Of a stretch of DNA of 64,000 nucleotides, positions 609 through 48,241 are shown piece after piece; the first letter of the stretch is position 1; each line of letters begins with the position of its first letter. Below the pieces are notes generated by a model, which had not been told where the DNA came from, searched no databases, and saw nothing but the letters and a program-made list of their open reading frames with translations. Both the position numbers and the translations under genes were made by a program. The stretch covers positions 62,001-126,000 of the forward strand of contig DLMY01000031.1 of assembly GCA_002478275.1 (NCBI GenBank). The letters are read 5' to 3'. This stretch comes from Actinobacteria bacterium UBA7524 (GTDB lineage: Bacteria > Actinomycetota > Coriobacteriia > Anaerosomatales > UBA912).

Positions 609-618
609 GAATGGGAGC

Positions 619-3360: not shown

Positions 3361-3370
3361 TACTCAGCGA

Positions 3371-5042: not shown

Positions 5043-5103
5043 CCCAATCCGTTGTGGTAGAATTCAGTCGTCCACCACAAGATGATGTGGTGTCGTCCCG
5101 TAG

Positions 5104-7053
<1,950 letters not shown>

Positions 7054-7074
7054 ACATATTCCAGGTAGGAGCAC

Positions 7075-10173: not shown

Positions 10174-10894
10174 CGCGAATTCCCGAGGCGGGGCCGGTGC
10201 CGAGTCCGGTCCCGCCTCACGTGTTCGGGCGGTGCTCTTCGATCTGGACGGTACCCTGCTCGACTCCATCCCGCTCATCCTGTCTTCGTTCAGGCACGCG
10301 ACCGAGACGGTGCTCGGCCAGGCGTTGCCCGACGAAGTCATGCTTCACAACGTCGGCGTACCGCTCGCCACGCAGATGAGGCAACTGGCGCCCGACCATG
10401 CGGAAGAACTCCTGCGCGTCTACAGGGCCCACAACGCGGAGCACCACGACACCTCTGTCGCGGCTTACCCAGGCGTAGCCGAGGCGCTGTCAAAGCTCCA
10501 GAGTGCCGGGTATCCGATGGCGGTTGTCACCTCGAAGATGGGGCCTTTGGCCAGGCGCGGTCTGGAGTTGTTCGGACTCGATAGCTACATGTCGGCTGTG
10601 GTCGGGTGTGAGGACACGCAGACGCACAAGCCCGACCCAGAGCCCCTTCGGGTGGCGGCGGAGCTACTCGGCGTGCCTTTGGAGGCATGCGCGTATGTGG
10701 GAGACAGCGAACACGACATGGCTGCAGCTCTGGCCGGTGGAGCAGTAGCGATCGCTGCCTTATGGGGTCCGTTCGAGCCGGAGCGCGTGCTGGCACCGGG
10801 TCCCGACTACGCATTACCTGAGATAGGGCGACTACCCGAGCTACTGGCTGGGGATGAACAGCGGTATGGTGTGAATGACGTGGTCCGCACCTGA
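10163..10894 (+). CDS. HAD-IA family hydrolase (PpaX/Gph-like)
   Basis: [10 protein letters not shown] motif [21 protein letters not shown]. Confidence 0.93.
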
Positions 10895-13197: not shown

Positions 13198-14387
13198 ACT
13201 TCCTGGAGAGCGTGCGGATAGCGATGCGGGCGCTTAACGCCAACAAGGTCAGGAGTGCGCTGACCATGCTTGGCGTCATCATCGGAGTCGCAGCGGTGAT
13301 TCTCCTGGTCGCCATAGGGACAGGCGTACAAGATGAGGTGACCGGCTCTATCGAGGGTCTCGGCAGCAATCTGATCTTCGTGTTCGCCGGCAACTTCGAA
13401 GAAGGCGGAAGCTCCGGCGGCGGCGGTATCGCGATACGCAAACAGTTCACGATAGACGACGCGGACATGCTGCAACGGCGTCTCGGTCCCGAAGAGCTGG
13501 TGGTGCCCCTGGTCCAAGGTCCCGCCATACTCAAGGCCGGGAACCGGACGATGCGCTCAACGCTCGCGGCGGGAAACGAGCACGCCGACGCAGTCTTCAC
13601 AGCCGAGTATCTGGGCGGGAGAGCCTATCGCAGGAGTGAAGTCGCCGCCGCGTCTCGAGTGGCCGTGATCGGCAGCACGGTGAGGGATCGCCTCTTTCCG
13701 CATGTGGACCCGGTTGGCCGCCAGATGAGCGTCAACGGTCAGCGCTTCACAGTCATCGGGCACGTCGCCTCGCAGGGCGGATCGCTGACGGGGGATCAGG
13801 ACAATCAGATCTACATCCCGGTGACCACGGCGCAGCGACTGCTAGGCTCCAGGGATGTGAGCTCGATCATCGTGCGTGCGTCGGATCCCGACAAGATCGA
13901 CGAGCTACAAGCCCAGATCAGGCAGGTCTTCACTCCATCATTCGGAGAGGAGTTCAGCGTATTCACCCAGGAACAGACGCTGGGAATACTCTCACAGCTT
14001 CTCGGAACGCTCACGGTCATGCTCGCGGGCATCGCGGGGATATCCCTGCTTGTCGGCGGGATCGGCATCATGAACATCATGCTCGTGAGTGTGAGCGAAC
14101 GCACCAGGGAGATAGGCATACGCAAGGCGGTCGGCGCCAAGACGTACGATATTCTTTCCCAGTTCGTGATCGAGGCGGTGGTGCTGTCAGTGGCTGGCGG
14201 CATGGTGGGGATCGCTCTGGGGTGGAGCGGTGCTCTTGTTCTGCAGCAGTGGGTGCCCACCGAGGTCACCGCGTGGGCGGTCGCGCTCGCATTCTTCTTC
14301 TCGGCGGCGGTAGGCGTGTTCTTCGGTGTGTACCCGGCGTACCGGGCGTCCCGTCTCGACCCGATCGTCGCCCTGCGCTACGAATAG
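13194..14387 (+). CDS. ABC transporter permease (MacB/FtsX family)
   Basis: [52 protein letters not shown]. Confidence 0.96.
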
Positions 14388-22685: not shown

Positions 22686-25600
22686 CTAGCCACCCAGCAA
22701 CGTGACGCGCACCTCGTGTTCGGCGCCGTCGCGTGCCAGCGGCACGAGCAGCCCGGGGAGGTCCTCGCCGTCCAGTGCCACGCGCTCGACACCGCGGTTC
22801 ACGCCACGGGGATTCTCCACGGTGATCCGGTAGAGGGTGCCTTGGTCCCGGTACTCAAGTTCATAGCTCTTCCATGACCTCGGGATGCAGGGATCGACCC
22901 TCAGATGTCGCTTCTCGTCCTTGACCACGACCCATAAGCCCAGGTGGTGACGTATCACCACTTGATAGAACCATGAGGCCGAGCCGGTGTACCAGGTCCA
23001 GCCGCCACGGCCCACGTGCGGCTCTGCTGCATAGACATCGGCGGCGACGACGTAGGGTTCTACCTTGTAGACATCGGCCGCTTCCCGGGTCAGGGCGTGC
23101 TTCACCGGGTTGATCAGGTCGAGGAGCCCATGTGCCTCGTCACCGTCACCCTGGAGGAGGTAGGCCAGCACCACCCATACGGCTGCATGGGTGTACTGGC
23201 CGCCGTTCTCCCGCACGCCCGGCACGTAGCCCTTGATGTAGCCGGGGTCGTGTTCCATCTTGTCGAACGGCGGCGCCAGCAGTGCCACGATCCCGGTCTC
23301 GCGCTTGATGAGCTTCTCCTCGACCGCGTCGAGTGCGCGCTGTGCGCGGTTCGGGTCGCCGCTTCCGGAGATCGTAGCCCAGGCCTGCGCGATCGCATCG
23401 ATCCGGCACTCCTCGGCATGCCGGGTTCCCAGAGGCGTGCCGTCATCGAAGTAAGCGCGGCGGTACCATGAGCCGTCCCAGCCCTCGGACTCGACGGCCT
23501 GGATGAAGCGCTTCGCGCGTTCGCGGTACTCGGAAGCCCGCTCGGGTTCGTCCATCAGCTCGCACAGTGGTGCGAAGCGCCGGAGCACCACGTCGAGGAA
23601 CCAGCCGAGCCACACGCTCTCTCCCGTACCATCGATGCCTACCCGGTTCATGCCGTCGTTCCAGTCNNNNNNNNNNNNNNNNNNNNNNNNNNNNNNNNNN
23701 NNNNNNNNNNNNNNNNNNNNNNNNNNNNNNNNNNNNNNNNNNNNNNNNNNNNNNNNNNNNNNNNNNNNNNNNNNNNNNNATGCCGTCGTTCCAGTCGCCG
23801 CCTCCCATCAGCGGCAGACCGTGCGGACCCGTCCCTGCTCCCGCCTCCAGCGCCGCGACGCAGTGCTCGTAGACGGTCGCCGCTTGCTCGGACGTTGTGG
23901 GCTGCATGTAGTTGTCCTCGCGACCCTCCTCGAGCGGCGGTCCTTCGATGAACGCCGTGCGTTCGTGCAATACGCTGGTGTCCCCGGTCGCCTCGACGTA
24001 CTCGGCGACGACATAGGGCAGCCAGTGCCGGTCGTCCGTGATGCGTGTGCGTACCCCCCGGCCCGAGACCGGCTGCCACCAGTGCAGCACGTCGCCTTCG
24101 GGGAATTGGTGCCTGCTGGCTTCCACGATCTGTTCGCGCACGAGGTCCGGCCGCGCGACCATCAGGGCGAGTACATCCTGGAGCTGGTCGCGGAAACCGT
24201 ACGCGCCGCTGCTCTGGTATGTCGCTGTGCGGCCCCACAAGCGGCAGGCGAGGGCCTGGTACAGAAGCCGCTCGTTGACGAGAAGGTCGAGAGCGGGATC
24301 GGGCGTCTTGGCCTGTACCGTGCCGAGGAGATCCCGCCACATCCCCCTCGCTTCTTCGAGTGCAGCATCGACTTCGCCCGGCATCCGGTACTTCGCCACC
24401 AGATCACGTGACTCGTCCAGGGTAGGTGTCTGGCCGAGCAGGAACGTCACGACCACGGATGCCCCAGGCTCCAGCTCGAGCTGTGTCATGAGCGCGCCGC
24501 AGTTGTCGTGGTAGCGGCCCGTGTGTCGCCCGAGCTCCCTGCGGTGCATCGCGGCGGGATCGGAGGGTCTGCGATTGCGGCCTACGAACTCGGTCCGGCT
24601 TCCGGTGAAGGAATGAAGCGGCCTGTCGCATGCCAGGAACGCCGCGCGGCCCGGGAAGTCCGGGTTGTGGTGATTGTGGGCGGTGAGCGTCTCGCGTTCC
24701 GCGTCGTACCAGGTGACGACGAGGTGCTGCGCCTTGCTGCGTGAGTTGCCGAGCACCCACTCGACGAACTGAGTGACGGACAGGCGTCGCGTGCGATCGG
24801 TGAGGTTCTCCAGCTTCAGACGAGCGACCCGCACCGGGTCTTCGACCGGCACGAACAGGTCGAGGGTGCTTGCGATCCCGTGTGATGTGTGTTCGAAGCG
24901 ACTCGAACCCTTCGAATGACGGACCATGTAGGGCGCAGTCCCACGGACCGGCAGCGGGGTGGGGCTCCAGAACTGGCCGGTCTCCTCGTCGCGCAGGTAG
25001 ATGACCTCGCCGCTGCCGTCGGAGACGGGATCGTTGTTCCAGGTGGTGATTCGGTTCTCGTGGCTGTTCTCCGCCCACGTGCAGGCGATGCCCGCCTCGC
25101 TGACCATCGTGCCGAAGCGCGGTGAAGCCATCACGTTGATCCACGGTGCGGGCGTCACGGTGCTCTCATCAAGGACCATCACGTAGTCGCCGGTCTCAGG
25201 GTCGAAGCCGCCGTAGCTGTTGTCGTAGAGAAGCTCGGGACGCGCGAACGGCGGTTGCGGGTCATCCTGTGCGGGACGCGAGGGCACCAGCCGGGGAGGT
25301 TCGACCGGGCGAGTCGCCCTGCGGTTGAGCTGGACTTCAAGAGCCCCGCCGTCACCTTCCAGCGTCGCGCGGGCGACGGACAGCAGCAGGTTCATCACGT
25401 CGGGGTGCATCTGGTCCGCACGGCGCAGGTAGACCCCGCCCGGCTTGTCGACCAGTTGCAGCGCGTGCCCGGTTCGCACCAGAAGACGCAGGCGCTCGTC
25501 GAGCTCATCGGCGTAGGAGGTCGGGCGCGTGTTCAGAACGACCAGGTCGGCGACGAGCCCTTTGTGACGCCAATACTGGTGGGCGAGAAGCGCCTGGCGC

Positions 25601-28600
25601 ACCAGAGGCGTGTGCTCCAGGTCTTCGATCCGGACAAGGAGTATCGGGTAGTCGCCCGAGACCCCGATCGACCAGAGCCCGGAGAGCGGCAGACCGTTCT
25701 CAGTCGGAGTCTTCACCTTCAGAACGGAGTGGGGGTCTGTCAGTAGCAGTCGAGACGCGAGTCGCTGGAGCGTCACGGCTTCCTGGGGAGTGATGCCGAG
25801 GTCCCGCAGTTCGATCTGTGCTGTGGTCCAGGCCAGGTCGATCGCCCTTTGCGCGCTGCGGACGTCGTGATACGTCTCCGCGAGACGAAGCGCTGCCTCG
25901 CGCGTGTCCGCCACACCTGTCACGAACACCAGGCGCACGCTCGAACCGGCGGGGATCGTGACGCCCTGGCGGATCGCGCACGCGGGATCCAGGACCGCGC
26001 CTGTCGTTCTGGAGAGCGGGCCTCCTGCGACTACTGCAGCGGGTGCGTCGGTGCCGTTGAGGCGGCCGATGAACCTGGCCCGGTCCGTCTCGTAGGACCA
26101 TTCGCACTTCTCTTCGGCCTCGCACGCCATGACATGCAGACCGAAGGGCCGGGGTTCCTCGGCGGAGCGGGGTCTGCGGGAGAAGACGATCGCGTGCAGG
26201 TGCTCGATCGCCTCGGTCTCGACGAAGAGGTTCGAGAAAGACTTGTGCATCTGGTCGGCCGCCTGGTCGGCGAGTGAGATCTCGAAGTAAGAGGTGACCT
26301 CGATGCGGCGCGGCTCCCGGCTGCGATTCGCCAGTGTCAGGCGCCTGACTTCGACATCGTCTTCCGGGGAGACTGATACTTCCACGTGTGTTTCGATATC
26401 GCCGTCGACGCGGCGATACTCGGCCTTGTCCGCCGAGTAGGTCACGTGGTAATCCTCGGGCTTCAGGATCCCCGGGTTGTGGGCGGCAGTCCAGATCACA
26501 TCGTTGTCGACATCACGCAGGTAGAAGAACTGGCCCCAGCAGTCCCGCGTCACGTCCTCCCGGTAGCGGGTGACCGCCATGTCCTGCCAGCGGCTGTATC
26601 CGCCGCCGCCGTTGGTCACCATTACGGAGTAGCGCCCGTTGGACAGGAAGTGAGTGGACGGCACAGGCGTATCCGCGAGGGGGTACGCTCGAATGACGGG
26701 AGGCGGCAACTCGCGAACGGAGCGGACGTGCTTGACCTCCTCCACATGGGGCTGTGTGAGCTGGGCGCGGCTGGGAACGCGCTCCTGGAGCAGCAGTTCG
26801 GCCGAGCCGACCATCGGGTCGCCGTGGAAGCGGTCGTGCATGCGGTACCCGGTCAGTTCGTTGCCGATGGCTACCAGGCTCATCCCCTGGTGGTGGGCGA
26901 AGTACGCGCGCACCACGGCGCGCCGAGCGCCAGCAGGCACTCGTCCTGGCGTGTAGTCGAGCGCCTCGTAATAGCCGTAACGGCCGCGTCCGCCCTGTTC
27001 GGCGAGTACGCGCAGGTTCTCGTACGCCTCACTCGCACTCACCGGAAGCGCAAGCACCGTCGCGTAGGGCGCGATGACGATATCGTCCGACAGGCCGCGC
27101 TTGAGTCCCAGGCCCGGCACGCCGAAAGCCTGGTACTGATAGACGAGTGCAGCGTCCTTCGCGTTGAAAGCGGACTCCGAGACCCCCCAGGGCACGCCGC
27201 GCTCCTGGCCGTACTGTATCTGCCGCTTCACGACGGAACGAACTGTCTCGTCGAGCATGGTCAGCGGCCAGGTGCGCATGACGAGCATCGGCATGAGGTA
27301 CTCGAACATCGAAGCGCTCCACGACAGTAGCGCGCGCCCTCCCGCAGTGCCGGTCACGGCCCGGCCGAGCCGGAACCAGTGCTCCTGGGGCACATCGCCC
27401 TTCGCGATCGCAAGGAAGCTCGCCAGCCTGCATTCGCTTGCGAGCATGTCGTAGTACGAGGGGTCGAGCCTGCCCTCGGCGGTGTTGAAGCCGATGGAGA
27501 ANNNNNNNNNNNNNNNNNNNNNNNNNNNNNNNNNNNNNNNNNNNNNNNNNNNNNNNNNNNNNNNNNNNNNNNNNNNNNNNNNNNNNNNNNNNNNNNNNNN
27601 NNNNNNNNNNNNNNNNGCGGTGTTGAAGCCGATGGAGAAGAGCAGCCGTCGCGCGTCGAACAACAGGCGGAAGTCCGTGTGCTCCCACATCTGTCGCGCG
27701 ATCGCCGCATCAAGACGTAGGCGACCGAGCAGTTCCTGGCAGTCGGGCCGGGCGGCCCTGATACCGTTGGCGACTTCCGAGGCCCAGCGCGCGGCCTCCT
27801 GCCGTTCTTCTGCCGAGGAACCCGGAGGATCGTCAGCGAAAGAGTCGAGGACCTGCAGCACGACTTCGAGACCCTCCGCCAGTCCGACCAGGCTCGGGAC
27901 GTAGTCGAGTATCGGCGCGAGCTGAGGCCAGCGTGGGTCCGATGCGACAGCTACCGGGACCCGGGTCAGGGATTCCGCCCACGGCGCCAGGTCTTCGAGG
28001 AGGACGCGAGCCTTGCTGACGCGCTCCTCGATCGCGTGTATCGAGGCGCGCACTCTTGCCAGGGGTGATGCCGGGTGAGGAGTGCCCGTTGTAGCGTCCG
28101 GGTCCCCGTCCTCCAGCTCACAGGCTGAAGCGGTGGCGGCCTTGACCAGGGTCTCCAGACGGGCAAGCAGAGCGCTCCAGGCGCCGAGGTCGACGAGTTC
28201 TTCGTCCAGGGCGACGTCACGCTCGAGTTCATCGAGGCTCTCACGCAGCAGGCGTACGGTTTCGTCCGGACTCAGTCTGTCCCTGTCGACGAACAGGTCC
28301 TCGATCGCCAACGAGATCGTGTCCACGAGTCCTTCCAGCAGCTGTTTGTCGAGCAAGGGGCCTTCCGAGGCCTCCAGGAGCCCCATTCGCAGCACCAGAA
28401 GATGTCCCGCGAGGTTGCCACTGTCGACCGTCGAGATGTATTTGGGAGGGAGTGGTTCGAGTGTGCGACAGTCGTACCAGTTGTAGTAGTGGCCTCCGAA
28501 GCGTTCGAGTCCCACCATCGTGTTGAGTGTGTCGGCGGTACGGGAGATCAGTTCTCGCAGCGTGACGTAGCCCAGGTCGAAGGCGGTCAGCGCTGAGAGC

Positions 28601-31600
28601 AGCTGCAGACCGATGTTGGTCGGCGATGTCCGCCACGCGACCTCCCCGTTGGGATCTTCCTGGAAGTTGTCGGGCGCCAGGTGGTGGCCGTAAGGCGTCA
28701 CGAAGGTCTCGAAGAAGCGCCATGTCCTCCTGGCAGTGCGGCGCAGGTCACGGCGGGCGTGTCCGTCGAGCGGCTCGGGTTCGGTCACCCGTACTTGCGA
28801 GATCCGCCATGCGATGTATGGAGCCGATGCCCAGACTGCCGCCAGAAGCAGCGAGGGTGCGATCCGTTCCAGGTGCGTGACGCACCCGGGTATCAGTAGG
28901 GCGATCGCTACCGCCGAGGAAGGCGCGAGCCGCCTTGTGAATCCGGCCAGGTCGTCTTTGAGGCGCTTCTCGGCATCGGCCGCAGTCTCCCATTCCAGCA
29001 GACCGCGGTGCGAGACGGCCATACGCCACAGGGCTCGGCAGATGGCGTCGGTCATCACCTGGGCCTGATGCGGTATGAGCGCGAGTGTCAGCAGGGCCCG
29101 GGCGGAGTCCCTGCCGAACTCTCGCCATGCAGCTGCAGCGACCGTCGCGAAGGGGATGGTCGCTGGGCGTGCCACGATTGCGTCCGCCAGCGCGAAGTAG
29201 GCGGGGAAGAAGACCACAAGACCGAAGGCGAGAGGCCAGACCCACAACGGACCCGGCAGCAAGAACCATCCGAGCGTGATGAGGGCGAGCGATGAGGGGG
29301 CAACCAGACTTCGTCGCAGGTTGTCCAGTATCTTCCAACGATGCAGGCGGGAAAGCGGGTTCGGTGTCAGGCCGTGTTCGCCGCGGACGCGCGGAGTGAG
29401 CCAGGGAAGGGTTTGCCAGTCACCGCGGACCCAGCGGTGGAGCCGTGCCATGTGTGCGAGATAACTCGCCGGGTGATCGTCGAACACCTCCACATCGGAG
29501 GCCAGTGCGACGCGCAGGAAGCTTCCCTCGATCAGGTCGTGCGACAACAGGGTGTTCTCCGGGAAACGACCATCCAGCAGCGTGTTGAACAGACTGACCT
29601 CGTATATGCCTTTGCCGGTGAAACTCCCTTCACCGAACACGTCTTGATAGGTGTCGGACACCGCCCCGGCATACGGATCGATCCCGGTTGGACCTGAGTA
29701 CAGCCAGGCGAAGAATGAGCGGGACGATGCGGGCAGCGACATGCTGACCCGTGGTTGCACCAACCCGTAACCTCCGAGCACTCGCTCGTCTCCGGGTGCG
29801 ACCCTCGCGCGGTTGAGCGGGTGCGCGATCGTGCTGACGAGTTTGCGCGCTCCGTCGCGCGGCAGTACCGTGTCCGCATCGAGTGTCAGTACGAAAGTGA
29901 CCGCTCGCAAGAACTCTTCATCGCCGGTGACGTGCGCGAACGAGGTGTCCGAAGACGCCCGCAGCCAGTGATTGAGCTCCATCAGCGATCCGCGCTTGCG
30001 CTCCCATCCCATCCACGAGTTCTCTGCTTCGTTGAAGCGTCGCTCCCGAATGAACAGCGCGAACGGCCGCCTGCCGTGTTCCACCTCGTACCGCTCGTTG
30101 AGTGAGGCTATACCTTCGATAGCGGCCTCGATGATGGCGGCGTCTCCTACTACCCGCTGGTGTTCGGAGGCCCTCAGGTCGCCGAGGAGACCGAAGCCCA
30201 CGTTGTCGTCCCTATTGGCGAGGTACGCGACCTCCAGGTTGTCCAGCACTTTGCGCACCGCTGGAACGGACGTGATGAGCGCGGGAACTATCACGAGGGT
30301 GCGGTGTGACTCCGACAGGGGCTGAAGATAGTCGAGCTTCGGTAGTACCCGCGGTGGGAATACCCATGCAGAAAGCCGGTTGGTCATGCTCAACGCGAGG
30401 TCAGAGAGCGGGATCAGCGCCAGTAGCGCCACTATCGCCAGTGCCCTCGTGCCGGAGCCCTCAAGCAGCAGCCAGGTCGCCAGCATGCCAAGCAGGGCGA
30501 CGGTCAGAACGGCAAGAACACCCCAGTAGAACAGTCCCTTGTTGGCGAGAGGCCCTCGGTATAGCACCTCTCTGAAGTGCGGACGGTAGCGGACCGAGCG
30601 TTCGAACTTGAACCGGCTTGCGCTGATCAGGTAGTGGCCTACGTGCCCTGCCACCTGGTCGCTGGGGTCCGTGATCAGGGCTTGGACACAGTGAGAGATG
30701 ACTGCTTCGGCCACGGTGATCTCATCGAGGGGCGTCCGCCTGGCGAGAGACTCGAGCGCGTGCCGGTACCGGTCGCGGCTCTTGAAGTCCATACGGGGGT
30801 AGACCCCTGATGGGTCCTGCCTCAGGATCTGTTCGACGACACAGGCGGTCTCGAAGAACGTCCGCCATTCGTAGGCGTCGAGGAAGCGGATGGACGTGAT
30901 GGTGTTCGCGATGGATATCTGGTCAGCGGCTTGCGCCTGCTGCAGGTCGTGAGCCAGTTGGTCGAGTGTGATCCCAAGGGCAGACAGCCGCCGCTCCAAC
31001 CACGCCCCGATAGGCTCGACCCCGATGTCTTGTCCGCTCAGGCGCTGAGAGAGCCTCATGAGGAACACCGGAGACGCCTTGGCCACTTCCGATTCCAGGG
31101 CATCGATCAACTCGCGAAGGCTCTCGGTCTGTTCGGGGGCGGCGAGCAAGAGCCTGTCTGCCCAGACATCCGCCCTTCGTCCGGCGACGTGCGCCTCGGC
31201 GACACTCCGAGCCAGCCGGCGTGCGTTCTCGACGAGAGCCACGCGCAACATGATCGGGACCGCCCACACTTCACCGATGGACCATGGGCTCGAGTCCTGG
31301 AAACCGTCGCTGAACTCAAGCAGGTACTCTTCATCGATGCGCGCGTCGGTGTGTGCTATGAGCGTGACCGCGCATGCGTACACTCGGGGCAGTCCGGCGA
31401 ATGGACCCTCGAGCACCCGCGGCAGTTCGCGTCCGTATCCCGACGGCAGATCGGAACGTACCGTTTGCACCTGCTCCTCGATGAGATAGTAGTTGTCGAG
31501 GAGCCATTCGCTCGCCGGCGAGATGGGGTGCTGAAGACGTACCGCTTCGGCTAACAAGGAGTTGTGGCTGCCCATCTCGGCCCCGGCATCGTCGACCATC

Positions 31601-31758
31601 TGGCGCAGCGGAGTGTCCCGCGTTGCCGGGGTCGTGCTCCATGTCAGTTGTTCGGCCAGCTCCCGGGCGCGCACTCTGAGACGTTCGGCAGTCAGCAGGG
31701 TGGCGCGGAAGGGGCCCGAATCGGCAACGGTCTGTGTATTCGGCGCCTGGAAGGGCAC
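22686..31758 (-). CDS. ndvB: Cyclic beta-1,2-glucan synthase (NdvB/ChvB/Cgs-like), ~2934 aa once two gap overlaps are collapsed
   Basis: WERKRG, LDADT, SHDLIEG, RLHRWVRGDWQ (GT domain); TSPTNIG, WSASMFEY, PWGVSES; GH94-like GFRDQLQD, GDWNDGMNRVG (rebuilt across gap), RENGGQYTH, WTWYTGSA; 9073-268=8805 nt in frame. Confidence 0.9.
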
Positions 31759-31884
31759 AGCTCACTCCCCTGATCGGCCGCGTGGGCCGGTCGCTGTTGG
31801 TCGTATCCTTGCTAAGCAAGGTGGCAACGCGATAGGTGTATTATCCACAACGGCGGCGGGGAGAGGACAGGGTACTGGCGACTA

Positions 31885-31902
31885 TATACCCCAGGGGGTA
31901 TA
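31885..31902. promoter_or_regulatory. CsoR/CstR/RicR-type operator overlapping -10
   Basis: Perfect palindrome TATACCCC-AG-GGGGTATA overlapping TATACT 31899-31904, 40 nt upstream of the rhodanese ATG. Confidence 0.75.
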
Positions 31903-31941
31903 CTGAGCGCACATCGGCAAAGAGTCAGGAGTCATGATCTC

Positions 31942-32649
31942 ATGAAGAACCCAGGCAAGATCGCCATATGGGCAGTCATAGGGATAGCGGTGCTGGTCAT
32001 AGGCTTCATGGCATTCTCGCCGGCGGAAGGCACGGTCGAGAATGTCGATGCGAGGAGACTGGCAGACCTCGTCGCTTCCGGCGTGAGGGTGATAGACGTC
32101 CGAACGGAAGGTGAGTACGCGGCCGGGCACATCGCAGGTGCAGAGCTCGTACCGATCGACCGGTTCGCTCAGGCGGCGGCTACATGGGACCGCACTGTGC
32201 CGCTCGCGGTGTACTGTGCGACCGGACAGCGCTCGACGACTGCAGTGAACCACCTGTCCGGCCAGGGATTCGAGAAGGTATATCACTTCAATGCCGGACT
32301 CGTGGCCTGGAGCGGAACACTGGAAAGAGGTGCCACTGCCGCGGCGCCAGCCCCAGAGCCGACAGCCAGTGCGCTGCCGGTCGTCTACGAGTTCTTCACT
32401 GACACTTGACCCGCCTGCGTCCAGGTGAAGCCTGTGGTCGACAGGCTGGTCAAGGAGTATGAGGGCAAGATTGAGTTCAGGCTCCTCAACGCGGGTACCG
32501 ACGCTGAAGCCACTGATCTGATGATGAGATTCGGAGTGACGGCCGTGCCGACGTTCGTGTTCCTCGGCAGTGATGGCGCGAACGAGGGCAAGATCATCGG
32601 GGCGGCGTCCGAGCAGGAACTGCGCGCCAAGCTCGACTCGCTCAAGTGA
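31942..32649 (+). CDS. Selenocysteine-containing rhodanese-thioredoxin fusion (235 aa, Sec156, UPAC)
   Basis: ORFs 31942..32409 and 32425..32649 share a frame; TGA 32407 sits at the first Cys of a Trx CxxC (YEFFTDT-U-PAC); rhodanese IDVR, GHIAGA, CATGQRS; Trx VPTFVF. Confidence 0.88.
32406..32453 (+). promoter_or_regulatory. Bacterial SECIS-like element
   Basis: AGCCTGT-GGTCG-ACAGGCT hairpin (32429-32447), loop starts with G 26 nt after UGA; lower stem TTGACC/GGTCAA. Confidence 0.75.
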
Positions 32650-32691
32650 CGTTGGTGTTGGACGCTCGTGCGACGTGGGTATATTCATTAC

Positions 32692-33124
32692 ATACCGGGT
32701 CTGAGCCCGGAAGGTACGTTGATAACGGCAAAGGAGTAGACCCGGTGACAGAAGTCGTTTCAGGCCGGGATGGCAGATGAAGGCCTCTGGATCGGCCCAG
32801 GACTGAAAGAGTCGGTACGTAGAGAGTCACTGTACTGTCGGTTCGATCGGTAAGGGCGCCGGAGAGGCGCCGACTTGTGGGATCGTATTGTAGGAAGCGA
32901 GTCGGGTCACCAGAGAGTCGGGCATAAGCCTCTGGATCGAAGAGGGTGCGGCCGAGAGGGACCGCTCACTCGGCCAAGAGCCCTCAAGGATATCCCTTTG
33001 GAGGGGACCCTCAGGCGGTGCGAAGGTCATCCCGGCATCACCAAGCAGTGAAACCGGCTACTCTGAATGGTCGTTACAGTCGATATCTGCGTGGCCCACG
33101 GGTTGGTACCGTGGGCCACGTTTT
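32692..33124 (+). ncRNA. Candidate large structured ncRNA (6S/Ms1-like topology, family unassigned)
   Basis: TTGGAC-N16-TATATT promoter at 32658-32685, nested long-range helices, no credible ORF, perfect terminator. Confidence 0.7.
33090..33124 (+). terminator. Intrinsic terminator
   Basis: CGTGGCCCACGG-N7-CCGTGGGCCACG followed by TTTT. Confidence 0.9.
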
Positions 33125-33197
33125 GTATCGCGCATGCTATAGTGTGTGTCCGTTCGGACCGTCCGGCGCTTCGCCGGTGCGCTCCGGGTGAGACTAT

Positions 33198-33272
33198 GGG
33201 CGAGTGGCGCAACGGGAGCGCACCTGCTTTGCACGCAGGGGGTTGTCGGTTCGAATCCGATCTCGTCCACCA
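33198..33272 (+). tRNA. tRNA-Ala(TGC)
   Basis: Acceptor GGGCGAG/CTCGTCC with G3:U70, CCTGC-TTTGCAC-GCAGG anticodon arm, TTCGAAT T-loop, CCA; TGCTATAGT extended -10 upstream. Confidence 0.95.
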
Positions 33273-33434
33273 NNNNNNNNNNNNNNNNNNNNNNNNNNNN
33301 NNNNNNNNNNNNNNNNNNNNNNNNNNNNNNNNNNNNNNNNNNNNNNNNNNNNNNNNNNNNNNNNNNNNNNNNNNNNNNNNNNNNNNNNNNNNNNNNNNNN
33401 NTTCGAATCCGATCTCGTCCACCATGAGAAGTCG

Positions 33435-33484: not shown

Positions 33485-34560
33485 ATGACACCACAGTCCC
33501 TTAGCGGAGAGATGGTCGAGCGTTGGCTGGAGGCCGCCAGTGTGCGCCGCTCGCGGCGCAGCTACGACGAAAGCGGCGTCGCAAAACCCGCACTCACCCG
33601 GCTCAGCGAGCTGAGCGAGGCGTTTCGCCCGTATCCCTTCGCACGCGCTGTGGTGATCGAATCTGCGCCTGCCGACATCTTCACGGGCATCGTCGGGGCG
33701 TACGGACGCATNNNNNNNNNNNNNNNNNNNNNNNNNNNNNNNNNNNNNNNNNNNNNNNNNNNNNNNNNNNNNNNNNNNNNNNNNNNNNNNNNNNNNNNNN
33801 NNNNNNNNNNNNNNNNNNNNNNNNNNNNNNNNNATCGTCGGGGCGTACGGACGCATATCCGGCGCGCCGTCCGCGGTGGCGTTCCTCGGCAATACCGGAC
33901 ACGCCGGCGTCGAGGCCGCTGTCGGGTATACGGGACAAGCGCTCGTGCTCGAGGCCACCGCGCTCGGTTTGTCGACGTGTTGGGTGGGCGGCTTGTTCAG
34001 GGCAAGCCGGGTCGGCGAGGCAGTGGGTCTCGGCGCCGGCGAGAAAGTCTTCGCCGTGACGCCTCTCGGTGTCGCTGCCGAGCGCATCACCGGCACCGAG
34101 CGTCTCGTCTATCGCATGCGTCCGNNNNNNNNNNNNNNNNNNNNNNNNNNNNNNNNNNNNNNNNNNNNNNNNNNNNNNNNNNNNNNNNNNNNNNNNNNNN
34201 NNNNNNNNNNNNNNNNNNNNNNNNNGTCTCGTCTATCGCATGCGTCCGGAAGGCAAGTCCCGTAAGCCCGCCGAGGAGATCGCTCCCGGTTGCGATGCAT
34301 GGCCGCGTTGGGCGCAGGCGGGGGTGGAGGCGGCGCGGCTGGCTCCGAGCGCGATGCACCGCCAGCCGTGGCGTTTCGCGCTTCACGGCGAGGCGGTCAC
34401 GGTGTCGTTCGCGGGACCCGATACTTACAAGGTATCCAAGCGTCTCGACTGCGGTATCGCCATGCTGCACTTCGAGCTTGGCGCGCTTGGCGAGGGTGTT
34501 GCCGGACGGTGGGAGCTGGTGGACAGCGGAGCGACTGTCGCGAGGTACGCCCGAGACTAG
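33485..34560 (+). CDS. Nitroreductase family protein (TM1586-like), split only by two assembly gaps
   Basis: RRSRRSY, LEATALGLSTCWVGG, ARLAPSAMHRQPWRF, LDCGIAMLHFEL; frames join when 23-nt gap overlaps are collapsed. Confidence 0.88.
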
Positions 34561-39356: not shown

Positions 39357-41705
39357 CTAAGGGACCGCGCACAGCTCGCGGATCGAGTCGTATACACCAT
39401 TCGAGATCGCGGCTTCGCCTCCGAATACGGCGATGCTCTCGATCCTGTTGCGGTTGATGAGCAGCATCGAGCGGGTGTCGGTGACGAGAACGTCCGGCCT
39501 GGTGAGCAGTAGCACGCCGCCGCCGGCGCCGGTCGCCGCTCCCCCTCCCAGGGCGTCGGGGAAAACGAGGCCGGTCGCGACGCCCACGCGTGAACAGGAG
39601 GCCCAGCCCTTCGAGACGGCGTGGTCGGCGAATGCGCGGGCGGTAGCGTAGCGGTCTGGTCCGGCCACACGGGTCCACGCGACATCCGAGCCGGTGAGCG
39701 CATCGGTCACGGCGGAGGAGACGGCGTTCTCACCGCCTACGACCGTCGCCGAGGAGATCCTGATGTCGTCGATGGCCCTGGCGGTGGCGTCGGGGAGCTG
39801 CGAAGGTCGCACGAGCAGAACAGGGGCCCTTCGCGCGTACGCGACTGGAGCGGCGGCCAGCGCATCGGCGAAGCCGTCCCCGCGCACCATGAACGCTTCG
39901 CGCTTGAACGCGGACCCCTGGAGGTCGGCGATCTCACGCGCAACCTCCGCGGCGGTCCCATAGCGGTCTTCCCCTGCGATGCGCGTGGTCAGGAGTCCGC
40001 TTCGCTGCAAGGACAGCTCGACCTGCTCGGATATGGCGCCCGGGCCGCCGACAAGCACGGCCCTCTTGGCGCCGAGCCGGACCAGCTCGGAGAGAGTGTC
40101 GGTTCTCAGAGTGTCGCGTGGCGTCAGGAGCAGCGGTGAACGGTATGCGCCCGCGAGTCCGGAAGCAGAGAGCGCATCGGGGAAGTCGTGGCCTACCGCC
40201 AAGACCACAGTGTCGGCCTGACCGGCCTCGTACGTCGCACGAGAGATCTCGAGTGCGGTCGCGTAACGATCGGGACCAGCGATGCGGGTGAGGCTCATGG
40301 GCATGATGGGGGCAGAGGGGGGGCCGTAGAGTGCGACGATGCCCGCCCGGTCCCCTTCGGCCAAGACCCTCTTCGTCGTTCCGGACTTCGACATGCCGTA
40401 CATCACCTTGGGGGCATCCGCTTCTCCGTACAGGTCACCCAGGGCAAGCCAGTGCCCGAACTCATGGGCGGCGACCGACTGCACGTCGAACGTGCCTGGT
40501 GAACCGTCCCCCCAGTTGCTCACCGAGTCACTGAAGATGACGTCGGCCTCGCATATGTCGTACCTGCCATCGCCGTTGGAGTCGCGGCGGTAGAACCAGA
40601 CGCGGGCCTCGGCCAGGGCGCCAGAGAAGCTCGTCGTGCCCCACCACACCTCATTGACCGCGTTCTCCCCGCGCGGGGCGCTGGTCGTGCCGTCGGCCGC
40701 GAAGAGCAGCCCAGAGCTGCCGTTCCATGCCGATGCTCCCCGTTCTACCTGTGTACGTCTCGTAGAGCTGACGTTCGAGGAGACCTTGAACGGTACGGTT
40801 GCGTTAGGCCATGCCGCCGGACCCAGTGAGTACGGGACATCCAGGTGGAAGCCGGGGGAGGAGCCCTGTGCCGCACTCCACACTAGTACCGGCCCCGAGC
40901 TGATCGAGCCTGGCACTTCCACCAGTATCGAGCCGTCGGACCACGAAACGACATTGGTGGCCGGAAGATAGGTACTCGCGGCGTAGTAGAAGTAGACCTC
41001 TCCACGCGTGTCGCCGAAGCCGGTTCCAGTGATCGTGATGAGCGCGCCGGCTCCGGCGGGTGCCTGAGCGGGACTGATGCTGGAGATCATCGGTCCTCCG
41101 GCGGACGAAGCGGTACCTTCCACGTCGCCGGTCGCCTCCGGAGACGTTCCGGTCAGGGCGGCGACCGGGGACGTCTCGAATGTCTGGACGGGTGGTGGCG
41201 AAACGACCGGGAAGCCCTGGCGCGCAAGGCGTACCCTGTGCTCGAAGAGCTGCAGGGGCTCGCCGGTGCGCTCGATCCGTTCGTCGCGCACCCTGAGCAC
41301 TCCCTGGTAGCCACCCACCACACGGCGTCGGGCGTCGAGGAACACGACCACGCGCTCCCCTCGGTGAAACGAAGGCGCGCCTGACACCCATAGGGTCTTG
41401 TCGCCGAGAGAGCCGCCGGGAACGGCCAGCACCACATCATCGGGCAGGGAGCCGGCCATGTGGGCACTCACCGCGAGCCGCACCTCGGTGACGATGCCAC
41501 TCTCGTTGTCTGACCGGGCGACAGTCGACACGACCTCAGCGACAACGACGTCGCGGGCCGCCAACGACAGTGCGGCGTCGTTCATCGGCTGCATCAATGC
41601 GTCGGCCGGTGACGGCATCGCGAATAGCGCACTCGCCAGCGTGGCGACCGATATCGCGCAAGCTGCGATGCAGCGGGGGAACGTTGTGAGACCTCGACTC
41701 AGCAC
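39357..41705 (-). CDS. Secreted metzincin-like metalloprotease with IPT/TIG domain and three CWB2 repeats
   Basis: Signal peptide; ITITGTGFG..W.D.SI.V.VP (IPT); HEFGHWLALGD + VMY Met-turn; RIAG.DRY.TA and (F)PDAL/ADAL...LL repeats; start GTG 41705 inferred. Confidence 0.85.
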   Translation of the reverse strand: MLSRGLTTFPRCIAACAISVATLASALFAMPSPADALMQPMNDAALSLAARDVVVAEVVSTVARSDNESGIVTEVRLAVSAHMAGSLPDDVVLAVPGGSLGDKTLWVSGAPSFHRGERVVVFLDARRRVVGGYQGVLRVRDERIERTGEPLQLFEHRVRLARQGFPVVSPPPVQTFETSPVAALTGTSPEATGDVEGTASSAGGPMISSISPAQAPAGAGALITITGTGFGDTRGEVYFYYAASTYLPATNVVSWSDGSILVEVPGSISSGPVLVWSAAQGSSPGFHLDVPYSLGPAAWPNATVPFKVSSNVSSTRRTQVERGASAWNGSSGLLFAADGTTSAPRGENAVNEVWWGTTSFSGALAEARVWFYRRDSNGDGRYDICEADVIFSDSVSNWGDGSPGTFDVQSVAAHEFGHWLALGDLYGEADAPKVMYGMSKSGTTKRVLAEGDRAGIVALYGPPSAPIMPMSLTRIAGPDRYATALEISRATYEAGQADTVVLAVGHDFPDALSASGLAGAYRSPLLLTPRDTLRTDTLSELVRLGAKRAVLVGGPGAISEQVELSLQRSGLLTTRIAGEDRYGTAAEVAREIADLQGSAFKREAFMVRGDGFADALAAAPVAYARRAPVLLVRPSQLPDATARAIDDIRISSATVVGGENAVSSAVTDALTGSDVAWTRVAGPDRYATARAFADHAVSKGWASCSRVGVATGLVFPDALGGGAATGAGGGVLLLTRPDVLVTDTRSMLLINRNRIESIAVFGGEAAISNGVYDSIRELCAVP

Positions 41706-41974
41706 GTTTCCTTCCTGATCCGTTCGGCGTCCATTGTATCGGTCGAACCGGCCGCCGAGCCCAGGGCGTCTCGCCGGGCGGTCGAAACGAACCGCTGACG
41801 CCTGGCCGTATATCAGTGTCACCTGCTCGTTACCCTCCCGCCACCGGGACTGAACGTTATCGACCGACTCTAGTATCAGGCCGTGGGAACCACAGGGCCT
41901 GACATGACGAGGAGGGCGAGGGCCGCGTTACCGGGCCCGACGCTCAGGACAGCAAATGGAAGGCCGGATCGAAA

Positions 41975-43126: not shown

Positions 43127-44536
43127 ATGCACATCAGAGCACCTAGGACGGACGTCCGCGTTCCGGCGCGGGTGTCGCGAGCTGTGGGCATGGCCATTCT
43201 TGGCCTTGCCCTTGTAGTGGTTGTGATCGCATCTCCCGCTCGTGCGTTCGCCGAGGAACCCGCCGGCGAAGTGCTCGTTCTCACGTTTCCACAGGTGCCG
43301 GATTCCTATCTCGGATGGCGCAGGTCTCCGACGTTCCTCACTGTGGTGCCGCTCTCCCCCGGCACGGTCTACTACACGTGGGACGATCCGTTCGGTGGCT
43401 GGCGACCACTGACAGGCCCGATCGTCGTACCTGAAGGCAAGCGGACGTTCATGACCCGGATCATGCGACCGGACGGTCGCCCCTCCGCCATAGAGCGTTT
43501 CGAGACACGTCTCGATTACCGTCTCGTCACGGCCAAGCCGAGGGTCTCTGCGCAGGCCGCCCCGTCGAGCACGAGTGTGAGGGTCACGGCTCGTATCAGG
43601 GCCCAGCCGGGTACGCGTATCCTGCGCATCGGTGGCGCGGACCGCTATGACACCTCCGCCCGCATCTCCGAAGCCAACTTCACCAGCGCACACACCGTCA
43701 TCGTCGCGACGGGCACGAACTATGCGGACGCGCTTTCGGCCTCCGGCCTCGCCGGCTGTCTCGATGCACCCGTGTTACTGACCCGCCCCACCAGGCTTTC
43801 CGGATACGCCGCCGAGGAGATACGTCGACTCCGCGCATCTCGGGCGATCGTCGTCGGCGGGGAGGCGGCGGTGAGCCGCGCAGTCGCGAGTGACCTCGTC
43901 GCTCTCGGGCTGGCCGTCGAACGCATCGGCGGCAGGGACCGCTACGAGACCGCGGCGTTCATCGGCAACCGGGTCATGACGTACGGCAATCCGGGTGGGC
44001 GTGTCTTCATTGCGAGAGGCGATGATTTCGCTGATGCGTTGTCCCTGGGGCCATTGGCTTACTCCTCGAACGCTCCACTCGTACTGGTCAGACCAGCGAC
44101 CGTGCCGCCTGCGACGCGCTCCTTCTTGGGCGCTCATAGTTTCTCCTCAGGCTGCATCGCGGGCGGTACGGTCGCGGTTTCAGAGGCGGTGGAGCGAGAG
44201 GTCGACCGTTATGTCGGGCAAGTGATCAGGCTGGCGGGCAATTCGCGCTACAGCACTTCGGTCGCGGTAGCGGCGTGGGCCGTAAGCGAGGGGATCGCTT
44301 CGTACGAGATGGTCGGCATCGCGACGGGTGTCGATTTCGCGGATGCCCTGTGCGGAGGAATCGCCGCAGGTGCGAACGGAGGGGTGATCCTGCTCACGCG
44401 GCCGGGAGATCTTCCGGCCGCCACAAGCGATGCCATGCAAGCGGTGATCCGTGACATCCGAGACGTCCAGGTATACGGTGGTGAGGTAGCCATACAGCCG
44501 GGGGTCATCAGCTCGATCTCTTCCATGGCGAGATGA
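43127..44536 (+). CDS. Secreted cell-wall-binding repeat 2 (CWB2) protein
   Basis: Signal peptide ending AFA; RIGGADRYDTS, NYADAL, DFADAL x2, PVLLT/VILLT. Confidence 0.9.
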   Translation: MHIRAPRTDVRVPARVSRAVGMAILGLALVVVVIASPARAFAEEPAGEVLVLTFPQVPDSYLGWRRSPTFLTVVPLSPGTVYYTWDDPFGGWRPLTGPIVVPEGKRTFMTRIMRPDGRPSAIERFETRLDYRLVTAKPRVSAQAAPSSTSVRVTARIRAQPGTRILRIGGADRYDTSARISEANFTSAHTVIVATGTNYADALSASGLAGCLDAPVLLTRPTRLSGYAAEEIRRLRASRAIVVGGEAAVSRAVASDLVALGLAVERIGGRDRYETAAFIGNRVMTYGNPGGRVFIARGDDFADALSLGPLAYSSNAPLVLVRPATVPPATRSFLGAHSFSSGCIAGGTVAVSEAVEREVDRYVGQVIRLAGNSRYSTSVAVAAWAVSEGIASYEMVGIATGVDFADALCGGIAAGANGGVILLTRPGDLPAATSDAMQAVIRDIRDVQVYGGEVAIQPGVISSISSMAR

Positions 44537-46571: not shown

Positions 46572-46928
46572 GTGTATGACCTCGAAGGGGTTCTCGGACC
46601 CTCGGTCATGGAGTTCGTGGAACGCCACGTCAGGTCTCTACTGACGTGGGACATCCTTGTGTTCTTCCACCGCAACCCGGACGCCGTCCTCGATGTCAAT
46701 GGGCTGGCGTCTCGCTTGGGTCGTCGTATAGAGGAGCTCGAACCGGAGATCGAGGCTCTCTGCGCTGGGCGGATACTCCAGTGTGCCGGGGGGTTGATAC
46801 GCTACAAGCCGACTCCCGAACTACGGGAGACGATCGGTGGGTTTGTCGAGGCATGCCAGGACCGAGGACGCCGGTTGGCGTTGATCGCGCTGGTGTTGCA
46901 CAAGATCAACCCGCAACAACCAGCCTAG
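46572..46928 (+). CDS. Hypothetical winged-helix-like protein
   Basis: ILVFFHRNP...LASRLGRRIEELEPEIEALCAGRIL...YKP helix-turn-helix/wing pattern; converges on HD-GYP gene with overlapping stops. Confidence 0.7.
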   Translation: MYDLEGVLGPSVMEFVERHVRSLLTWDILVFFHRNPDAVLDVNGLASRLGRRIEELEPEIEALCAGRILQCAGGLIRYKPTPELRETIGGFVEACQDRGRRLALIALVLHKINPQQPA

Positions 46929-48241
46929 AGGTGTTCTGACACCGAGACTGCGAGACTCGCCGGGTCGACCACTTCAACGATAGGCAGATCGTGTTCGGCC
47001 GTGTCGATCTCGTAGGGTTCTTCGAGAGGCAGGCCACCCTGGTCGTAGACGATGCGCACGATCGGCCTCAAGGACTCCTCCCCGGGCCGGCTCACGACGC
47101 CAACGGACTGGTCGGAGAGACGCACCAGGCACCCGACGGGAAACACGCCCATCGCCTTGGCGAACAGTCGCGCGAACATGGGATCGAGAGCCGTGCCCGA
47201 CTCTCTGAGTACCTGGAGTATGGCCTTGTCGGGGGTCATGGCTTCCCGCTCTGCGGTCTCCGTCGTGAGGTTGGTGTAGCGATCGGCTATCGCGACCATC
47301 CTGCTGAATGGGTGTCCCACGTAGTCCCCGGGGTGCTCGGGGAATCCCCCACCGTCCACGTGCATATGGTGTTCGTACGCCACGAGCATGGGCGAGGGGT
47401 CCTCGTCCGAGTGCCTCGCGAGCAACTCGGCGCCGATCTGTGGATGCATCCTTCTCATCGGCTCCGCCTGGGCCGGATCGTCGGTCTTGAAGGCGGCCTT
47501 GCCGATGTCGTGCATCAGCGCCGCGAGACCGAGAGAGGTCAGCCCTTCCTCAGGCAGACCCAGCGCGCTTCCGAGCGTCATCGAGTAGATCATCACGTTG
47601 ATCGAATGGAAGAGATGCGCTTCGTTCATCCCGCGCATGGTCGCAAGGCCGAGCACTGAAGCCTGGTCCTCCAGCATCCGCTGCATGATGTTGTCGACCA
47701 TCTCGCCGGCGGCGGCCGTGTCGGGCCGGCCGCTCTGGGCGATCTGGGCCGACATGGCCTTGAGCACGGCAACGAGTCTGTTGTACAGAGCTCTGTCCTG
47801 CTCGCGTTTGCGGTCCCGCTCCTCTCGTTCCTCCCGCTCTTCGTCGAGCAGGAACGAGACCGTGACTGCAGTGACGCCCCGTCGCTGCAGCTCGGCCTCG
47901 ACGTCGAGTTCCGGGGAGGGGCGCAGACCCAGGACCTCTACCAACCCAGTGGCGTCCGTTCGGCTGAAGTGCGCCTGGAGCGTGAGACTCTCGACCTTTC
48001 TTGATTCCAGCGCTTCGGCGATGGCTGCGCAGCCGGGGTTATCGTCGGGTATGACGCTGCTCGCGTGATACAGATGACCTTGATGCAGGTTGAGGGTGAT
48101 CGGTCCTGAGGCGGTTGCGGCAGACACAGCTGTGACCAACGCATCGATCGCTTCGATGAACGCGGGGTGCGTGGGCGGATACAGTTGTGAGGCCTTGCGA
48201 CCGGAGGCCAATGAGGTGATGACGCTTGCGGCTGCCTTCAC
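46925..48241 (-). CDS. HD-GYP-family protein (degenerate GFP variant)
   Basis: HSINV, MHDIGK, HPQIG, EHHMHVDGGGFP, VAIAD, GTALDP, GVFPVGCLVRL. Confidence 0.85.
   Translation of the reverse strand: MKAAASVITSLASGRKASQLYPPTHPAFIEAIDALVTAVSAATASGPITLNLHQGHLYHASSVIPDDNPGCAAIAEALESRKVESLTLQAHFSRTDATGLVEVLGLRPSPELDVEAELQRRGVTAVTVSFLLDEEREEREERDRKREQDRALYNRLVAVLKAMSAQIAQSGRPDTAAAGEMVDNIMQRMLEDQASVLGLATMRGMNEAHLFHSINVMIYSMTLGSALGLPEEGLTSLGLAALMHDIGKAAFKTDDPAQAEPMRRMHPQIGAELLARHSDEDPSPMLVAYEHHMHVDGGGFPEHPGDYVGHPFSRMVAIADRYTNLTTETAEREAMTPDKAILQVLRESGTALDPMFARLFAKAMGVFPVGCLVRLSDQSVGVVSRPGEESLRPIVRIVYDQGGLPLEEPYEIDTAEHDLPIVEVVDPASLAVSVSEHL

Follow-up and report, generated by a model that had tools for sequence, protein, structure and literature searches.

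What is the active site of a thioredoxin doing astride a stop codon? The question is raised by a locus in a 64,000-nucleotide stretch of DNA from Actinobacteria bacterium UBA7524 (contig DLMY01000031.1, positions 62,001 to 126,000), here called the window and numbered from its own first letter. Two open reading frames (ORFs), 31942..32409 (155 residues) and 32425..32649 (74 residues), lie in the same frame on the + strand, with a single TGA at 32407-32409 between them. When the TGA is read through, 31942-32649 encodes 235 residues, running ...PVVYEFFTDT-U-PAC-VQVKPVVD...VPTF (U, selenocysteine), with no frameshift and no other stop before the true one. An earlier note on this DNA had proposed that the two ORFs are one frame split by the TGA, and both the ORF list and the sequence bear this out. 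The answer favored here is that the locus is one selenoprotein gene, in which UGA 32407 is decoded as selenocysteine (Sec) with the aid of a hairpin at 32429-32447, a reading to which a probability of roughly 0.8 may be given. That 31942-32649 is a single recoded ORF can be held with still greater confidence. The features at issue are these:

31942..32649, + strand: proposed single coding sequence of 235 residues, with ATG at 31942, Sec codon TGA at 32407-32409 and true stop TGA at 32647-32649.
32407..32409, + strand: in-frame TGA, read as selenocysteine U156 on the evidence of the frame, an orthologue (L001) and the Cys of the homologues.
32429-32435/32441-32447, + strand: candidate bacterial selenocysteine insertion sequence (SECIS) hairpin, AGCCUGU/ACAGGCU, with a 7-bp stem and the loop GGUCG at 32436-32440.
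32406..32453, + strand: lower stem TTGACC (32406-32411)/GGTCAA (32448-32453) enclosing the hairpin, which pairs in the window's minimum-energy folds and is window-specific.

What do the relatives carry at this site? A search for related loci gave 34, of which 16, those whose match covers the thioredoxin part, were translated across the site. Fifteen of the 16 have Cys there. The 16th, L001, from a metagenome-assembled genome (MAG) of Coriobacteriia, is 54% identical and reads ...YEFYTDW-TGA-PSC... in one frame, with conservation continuing across the TGA; it is the only TGA-bearing orthologue among the 34 loci. The proteins tell the same story. When 8000 candidates were scored against the read-through sequence, 172 proteins had E <= 1e-3, and the best 120 of these were taken; another 150 listed matches came from an exhaustive search of representative proteins. 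Cys occupies positions 92, 156 and 159 in all 34 homologues that BLASTP aligns from residue 92 to residue 215 or beyond, and it aligns with U156 in 22/22 of the non-TGA sequences of a multiple alignment (A2). In that alignment C92, R97, C156 (U in the TGA forms), C159 and P203 are invariant, C92 and R97 being present in 24/24 sequences. The closest Cys forms among the matches listed are P0003 (238 aa, 55% identical, ...YEFYTDW-C-PSC) and P0125. The TGA thus stands at the position of the attacking Cys of the thioredoxin fold, as the earlier note had claimed. Some shorter relatives, found in MAGs of WOR-3 and of uncultured bacteria (L002, L003, L007, L009) and as the protein P0193, consist of a membrane anchor and a thioredoxin domain only; they have Cys at the site (W-C-[PG]-P-C, or C-G-V-C in P0193) and share the motif K-E-Y-E-G-K-I-E.

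A second class of relatives appears to consist of halves. At least 73 distinct predicted proteins end on the first beta strand of the thioredoxin fold (beta-1), exactly one residue before the redox site: 44/120 of the read-through matches, including P0002, the window's own entry, and 29/150 of the representative matches. They are 34-64% identical, and their endings follow the pattern ...YEF[YF]TD[WST] with variants, the final tripeptides being TDW (20), TDS (14), TDT (10), TST (6) and others. The rhodanese loop Y-C-x4-R-S is present in 72/73, and 64/73 passed a stricter, alignment-based test. Where, then, is the rest of these proteins? A single-sequence search with the fragment downstream of the TGA found only 2 proteins among 3 candidates, and a profile was needed; the profile of the post-TGA fragment matched 360 of 431 candidate proteins at E <= 1e-6. 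Among the best 120 of the 360, 110 are 74 aa long and the other ten are 70-75 aa; not one of the 120 contains CxxC. These orphan tails start MKPVVD or MAPVVD. Judged by their sequences, they would be the missing C-terminal parts of the truncated proteins, from genes that annotation has split in two. The names seen at NCBI for the halves are "rhodanese-like domain-containing protein" and "thioredoxin family protein", in MAGs of Coriobacteriia or Actinobacteria. In two pairs, P0017 with P0296 (56615) and P0016 with P0306 (3967), longest contigs of equal size hint at co-location, which is circumstantial only.

How would the ribosome be told to insert selenocysteine at this UGA? The hairpin downstream of it has, taken alone, a folding energy of -11.6 kcal/mol (z -3.61), and none of 200 shuffled sequences folds as well. 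Its stem starts 19 nt and its loop 26 nt after the TGA. The earlier note was right about the 7-bp stem and the loop that begins with G; its distance of 26 nt belongs to the loop and not to the hairpin as a whole. The hairpin of L001 likewise has a 7-bp stem, with the loop GUU, a distance of 27 nt from UGA to loop and an energy of -11.6 kcal/mol (z -3.51). The two hairpins align in register, and all six consensus pairs are kept, two of them (2/6) by compensatory changes (U-A to C-G and G-C to A-U). The legend to Fig. 2 of a 2026 inventory of selenoproteins (PMC13188914) describes bacterial SECIS elements as having an apical loop of 3-9 nt, an upper stem of 4-16 bp, a G among the first two loop nucleotides, a UGA-to-loop distance of 16-37 nt and a minimum free energy <= -7.5 kcal/mol; both hairpins, in the window and in L001, fall within all of these ranges. 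The proposal of a UxxC selenoprotein with a SECIS is therefore upheld, in that the hairpin fits the published bacterial model and covaries in the TGA-bearing L001. The lower stem, TTGACC/GGTCAA, which had been put forward as closing the hairpin, fares less well. It does pair in the window's minimum-energy fold, but the fold that contains it has a different upper part from the 7-bp hairpin, and it is absent from L001, the one orthologue compared as DNA; it is thus not conserved.

A further sign of the hairpin may be visible in the proteins themselves. The SECIS stem is encoded within the conserved peptide K-P-V-V-D-[R/G]-L, where the codon for Pro is paired with that for Arg or Gly. At the latter position, residue 168 (codon 32443-32445), all 110 of the 74-aa tails have either Gly (57) or Arg (53), whereas Gly or Arg is found in only 3/34 of the Cys forms, in which K, E, S or A mostly take its place. 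Arg and Gly codons have G in the second position and can pair with the Pro codon, and therefore the residue would be only Gly or Arg in the tails. We infer that the restriction to Gly and Arg is an RNA constraint imposed by the SECIS stem and made visible at the level of the protein.

What kind of protein would be made? The read-through product falls into four parts:

31960..32016, + strand: N-terminal membrane anchor, residues 7-25 (Kyte-Doolittle 2.73; AlphaFold2 helix 4-24), predicted N-in with the domains outside.
32056..32313, + strand: rhodanese domain, residues 39-124 (Pfam PF00581, E 1.1e-14, 55.1 bits against a cut-off of 22.2).
32326..32373, + strand: Ala/Pro-rich linker, about residues 129-144, seen in the sequence; residues 131-140 form the lowest-confidence block of the structural model, with a mean predicted local distance difference test score (pLDDT) of 54.
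32374..32637, + strand: thioredoxin-fold domain, residues 145-232, with U156-P-A-C159 and cis-Pro203 (Pfam PF00085, E 3.9e-11, 43.3 bits against 23.5).

The transmembrane or signal segment, the rhodanese with its CATGQR loop and the Ala/Pro linker described in the earlier note are all present by sequence, Pfam, Kyte-Doolittle hydropathy and the model. The active-site residue of the rhodanese, Cys92 (TGT 32215-32217), sits in the C-X4-R loop CATGQR (C92-ATGQ-R97). A C-X4-R loop marks the sulfurtransferase type of rhodanese and C-X5-R the phosphatase type, and on this familiar classification an arsenate-reductase or phosphatase-type rhodanese was set aside. The AlphaFold2 model of the read-through product, built on 24 aligned sequences, has a mean pLDDT of 90.4; in it the N-terminal helix (4-24) is followed by the alpha/beta unit of a rhodanese and by a thioredoxin fold. 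Its best Foldseek match is spinach thioredoxin m (1fb0_A; template modelling (TM) score 0.80, target-normalised; root-mean-square deviation 1.3), and single-domain rhodaneses are also matched. No solved chain with both domains in the same order was found among the best 60 sequence matches or the listed fold matches.

The location of the protein can be predicted from the family as a whole. A strongly hydrophobic N-terminal segment is found in 73/74 family members, with a mean net charge of +1.8 before it and -0.27 after it; in 5/74 there is a lipobox-like L-x-[GAS]-C instead, and many of the distant Cys forms look like lipoproteins. Because of the hydrophobic segment, the charge bias and the lipoprotein-like Cys forms, the segment is most likely a single-pass, N-in anchor that places both domains outside the cytoplasmic membrane.

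In the mechanism envisaged, Cys92 would capture sulfane sulfur from thiosulfate, polysulfide or persulfide; the U156 selenolate would then attack the Cys92 persulfide, so that sulfide is freed or the sulfur is handed on; Cys159 would resolve the intermediate to a selenenylsulfide; and a membrane reductant would finally re-reduce the U156/C159 pair. Provided that the protein is made, this stepwise persulfide relay, drawn by analogy, comes a little short of an even chance. Termination at the UGA may in addition yield a rhodanese-only isoform, as the earlier note proposed.

What would switch the gene on? Its flanks contain three small elements:

31886..31901, no strand assigned: palindrome ATACCCCAGGGGGTAT, similar to CsoR/CstR operators, 41 nt upstream of the ATG; putative regulator-binding site.
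31927..31931, + strand: Shine-Dalgarno-like AGGAG, read from the sequence, 10 nt before the ATG; presumptive ribosome-binding role.
32664..32680, + strand: weak terminator-like stem-loop after the stop codon, a consensus match only (1 found, 0.4 expected).

The pattern ATACCCCAGGGGGTAT has its sole match in the window here, with 0.07 expected, and one or more matches occurred in 7/100 shuffled sequences. Within the 34 loci its one occurrence, L001 3017-3032, precedes the orthologue at the corresponding place. The Streptomyces CsoR consensus is given as ATATACCCCTNAGGGGTATAT, with copZA under CsoR (PMC3902906), and the CstR (cst) operator of S. mitis, which precedes rhodanese genes, as ATATACCCTTATGGGGTATAT, with RhdA and RhdB under CstR (PMC8643695). 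Like the CsoR- and CstR-regulated operons of these papers, the present locus has a palindrome of the form ATACC...GGTAT, with a G/C tract and AT flanks, which here immediately precedes a gene for a rhodanese. Judged by its sequence, the palindrome probably binds a CsoR/CstR-family repressor that keeps transcription in check; the inducing signal would be reactive sulfur species or Cu(I), between which the palindrome does not distinguish. On our reading, a -10-like hexamer overlaps the right arm of the palindrome, TATACT (31899-31904) in the window and TATGAT in L001; a promoter scan called no sigma-70-type site.

These strands can be drawn together into a fuller, more tentative picture, which is possible rather than probable. 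The gene would be the founding example of a large, systematically mis-split family of selenoproteins of Coriobacteriia-like actinobacteria, acting as surface Sec-dependent persulfide, polysulfide or thiosulfate reductases in which the rhodanese persulfide is discharged in cis by the Sec-thioredoxin. A CsoR/CstR-type switch would place the enzyme in an extracytoplasmic defense against reactive sulfur (or copper-sulfide), and the SECIS would constrain the peptide K-P-V-V-D-[G/R]-L.

A number of observations weigh against this picture or against the decoding on which it depends. The covariation of the hairpin comes from two sequences, the window and L001, and the window's own minimum-energy fold favors a different, longer hairpin. 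A search of 31700-33300 against Rfam at E <= 1 matched neither a SECIS nor any other family across the gene; at gathering thresholds, only two tRNAs are reported in the window. Within the 64 kb, Pfam searches of 39 long and 38 short ORFs found no selA, selB or selD, and ARAGORN found no tRNA-Sec, only tRNA-Ile and tRNA-Ala. The TGA forms read as DNA are those of the window and L001; for the other relatives, both the identity of the stop codon and the side-by-side position of the two halves are deduced from the proteins. The same Pfam searches of the window's ORFs found neither a CsoR-family gene nor a gene for a CcdA/DsbD-like reductant, and the palindrome, with the form TAC-N8-GTA, is one base shorter than the TAC-N9-GTA of the characterised CsoR/CstR sites in the cited papers. 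Finally, the AlphaFold2 model has a predicted TM score (pTM) of 0.60 and a low-confidence linker, so that it does not support any particular docking of the two domains. A literature search on the use of Sec in Coriobacteriia returned nothing useful.

How do other explanations compare? The one that survives best keeps the selenoprotein and gives it a different task: it would be a copper-induced (CsoR-type), general extracytoplasmic disulfide reductase or isomerase that repairs copper-damaged thiols or makes surface sulfide by which metals are precipitated, with the rhodanese as an accessory. The palindrome matches the operators of the copper sensor CsoR as well as those of CstR, and a DUF411 gene, which we take to belong to the CopG copper-resistance family, lies 3 kb from a distant Cys-form locus, L025. 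Metal detoxification by the sulfide of a periplasmic rhodanese has also been considered for PspE in PMC2593051, although there the authors raise it as a possibility only. On the other hand, the invariance of C92 and R97 in all 24 aligned fusions argues for a rhodanese that is catalytic and not accessory, and no copper gene adjoins the locus in either the window or L001. A role in copper stress is unlikely, though less so than the other alternatives.

If the protein is full length, must it contain selenium? The UGA could instead be read through by a near-cognate tRNA-Cys or tRNA-Trp, or the codon could have been reassigned, and the machinery for Sec was sought in the window only, which leaves such a reading some room. 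However, TGA is the stop used most often in the window, ending 17/36 of the ORFs of 200 aa or more (TAG ends 14 and TAA 5), and it also terminates this very gene; TGA is therefore not reassigned, and codes 4 and 25 are ruled out by the stop usage in the window. Neither a SECIS-fitting hairpin kept by compensatory changes nor the Gly/Arg-only pattern at residue 168 (110/110 tails against 3/34 Cys forms), which is what an RNA constraint would be expected to produce, sits well with selenium-free readthrough, and this explanation is quite improbable. A scan of the window for other in-frame TGA candidates found none in a UxxC or CxxU context, but was uninformative because the high G+C content yields many long spurious frames.

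Slightly more improbable again is that the TGA is a genuine stop, giving a rhodanese of 155 residues with a useless beta-strand tail, while the 74-codon frame is left untranslated or makes a separate thioredoxin fragment. Public gene callers do split the gene in this way; starts are available after the TGA, GTG 32425 in the window and ATG 3540 in L001; and no Sec machinery was seen within the 64-kb window. But the downstream piece would lack strand beta-1 and, as in all 120 tails, the CxxC, which bars it from acting as a redox thioredoxin. Moreover, the stop would fall on the catalytic position at which 34/34 full-length homologues have Cys, in a frame whose sequence is conserved past the TGA and which has a covarying hairpin at SECIS distance. 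As for a decaying pseudogene, or a TGA created by an error of assembly or sequencing, the assembly does have six masked N runs, but a stop position that recurs in at least 73 distinct relatives at 34-64% identity and in the independent genome of L001, with neither frameshifts nor other stops, allows this to be dismissed.

The selenoprotein gene, to return to the favored reading, lies in the chromosomal origin region, with dnaA, dnaN, recF, a DciA-domain gene, gyrB and gyrA at 535-10173. Upstream of it, and divergent from it, is a giant gene of 2771 aa (23443-31758, - strand) with GT2, glucoamylase-like and GH94 domains and two masked N runs inside; by its domains it looks like a cyclic beta-1,2-glucan synthase. 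Its synteny with the selenoprotein gene is kept in L001 (1-2880, - strand). Downstream, some 270 nt of the non-coding DNA that separates the selenoprotein gene from the tRNA-Ala form a conserved block (window 32764-33035, + strand; L001 3978-4234, + strand). Its two versions agree in 194/275 aligned columns, share long invariant stretches and show no codon periodicity. No Rfam family was found in it at E <= 1 in the window or in L001. The consensus fold of the + strand has -84.95 kcal/mol and 75 pairs, 7 of them compensatory, with an 11-bp closing helix; that of the - strand has -48.45 kcal/mol. With two sequences compared, the block is a candidate structured RNA outside the known Rfam families.

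Elsewhere in the window, a gene for a HEAT-repeat protein is followed by one for an HD_5 (HD-GYP-like) protein in two similar pairs, at 46925-50238 (- strand) and 56056-59711 (+ strand), and three CWB2 cell-wall-binding repeats are found in each of two proteins, at 39357-41822 (- strand) and 43127-44536 (+ strand), one of which also has an IPT/TIG domain. The masked N runs, of 101-129 bases each, are at 23667-23779, 27502-27616, 33273-33401, 33712-33833, 34125-34225 and 60649-60771; three of the six interrupt one gene, TM1586-type and nitroreductase-like, at about 33485-34560. Outside the window, in the Spirochaetia MAG of L025, the Cys-type fusion is found near the DUF411 gene and a gene that joins an ArsR-type helix-turn-helix to a rhodanese; between them the three genes occupy 8041-8706, 9890-10651 and 13592-14140, all on the + strand. 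This neighborhood hints at regulation linked to sulfur or metals, in a homologue that is distant (26% identity).

What follows if the reading is right? With at least 73 distinct N-terminal halves and 360 tail-like proteins (E <= 1e-6), hundreds of public gene calls are apparently halves of selenoproteins, and a family model would mend the split calls and raise the selenoprotein count of Coriobacteriia-like genomes. Rhodanese and thioredoxin are known to act as partners when they are separate proteins, and a natural fusion of the two that carries Sec outside the membrane would offer a handle on the reduction of persulfide and polysulfide at the cell surface; it might also reveal the advantage of selenium in persulfide chemistry. 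The conserved operator-like palindrome suggests a regulatory input, from sulfur species or copper, and a module of this kind for defense against reactive sulfur, if it exists, has no characterised counterpart. The Gly/Arg-only position, for its part, would be an example of a SECIS hairpin shaping a protein sequence.

How does the predicted protein compare with known systems? Its closest counterpart in chemistry is the selenoprotein thioredoxin of the Treponema denticola type (PF00085, UxxC), listed as experimentally verified in the part of the 2026 inventory that deals with it (PMC13188914). Both have the thioredoxin fold, with Sec as the first residue of UxxC and the one that attacks, and both have a SECIS within the coding region. 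The T. denticola-type protein, as it appears there, is small, soluble and stands alone, whereas here the domain is the C-terminal part of a membrane-anchored rhodanese fusion and has the motif U-P-[AS]-C. The read-through product also stays below the cut-off of the equivalog for canonical TrxA (TIGR01068, 41.8 against 96.8).

For the reaction, the model is E. coli GlpE, whose rhodanese persulfide is discharged by thioredoxin; PspE is a periplasmic rhodanese (both as summarised in PMC2593051, citing Ray et al. 2000). Both, like the domain described here, are single-domain rhodaneses with a six-residue loop, and PspE is also extracytoplasmic. By analogy, the fusion would carry out within one protein the reaction that GlpE and thioredoxin perform together. 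GlpE and PspE are, however, separate proteins served by a Cys-thioredoxin, and the read-through product scores far below their NCBIfam models (GlpE 40.8 against 102, PspE 27.4 against 102).

Rhodanese-type selenoproteins are themselves known, the inventory describing forms 1-5, among them the rhodanese/DsbD fusion-like TsoB (NF045694) and NF041203 (PMC13188914). These likewise combine a rhodanese domain with selenocysteine, but in the forms as described the Sec is part of the rhodanese, stands next to it or belongs to a DsbD-like portion, whereas here the rhodanese keeps its Cys and the Sec is in the thioredoxin. The curated models reflect this difference: TsoB (30.7 against 805), rhodanese_LYCAU NF041203 (33.1 against 115), SaoT NF040730 (25.7 against 65) and PDO_seleno_TRX TIGR02187 (18.5 against 185) all stay below their cut-offs. 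In NCBIfam release 20.0, no model reaches its cut-off with the read-through sequence, and no curated selenoprotein model covers the form; nor do the passages of the inventory's table on rhodaneses, thioredoxins and fusions contain a rhodanese-thioredoxin fusion with Sec in the thioredoxin (PMC13188914).

The earlier note knew of no characterised protein of this architecture, and a phrase search of the literature for rhodanese-thioredoxin fusions, in the 20 of its 26 papers judged by title and abstract, found no characterised one either. The architecture itself is less singular than that might suggest, since Cys-type rhodanese-thioredoxin fusions are common among predicted proteins. These fusions (228-269 aa, many with a lipoprotein-like signal, and besides these the one at L025 in Spirochaetia) have the same domain order; they differ in having Cys, mostly as W-C-x-P-C, in place of Sec, and are 24-36% identical. 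What is new, then, is the architecture of the selenoprotein, its location in the cell and the existence of a large unrecognised family, while its kind, a UxxC selenoprotein of the thioredoxin fold, is a known one.

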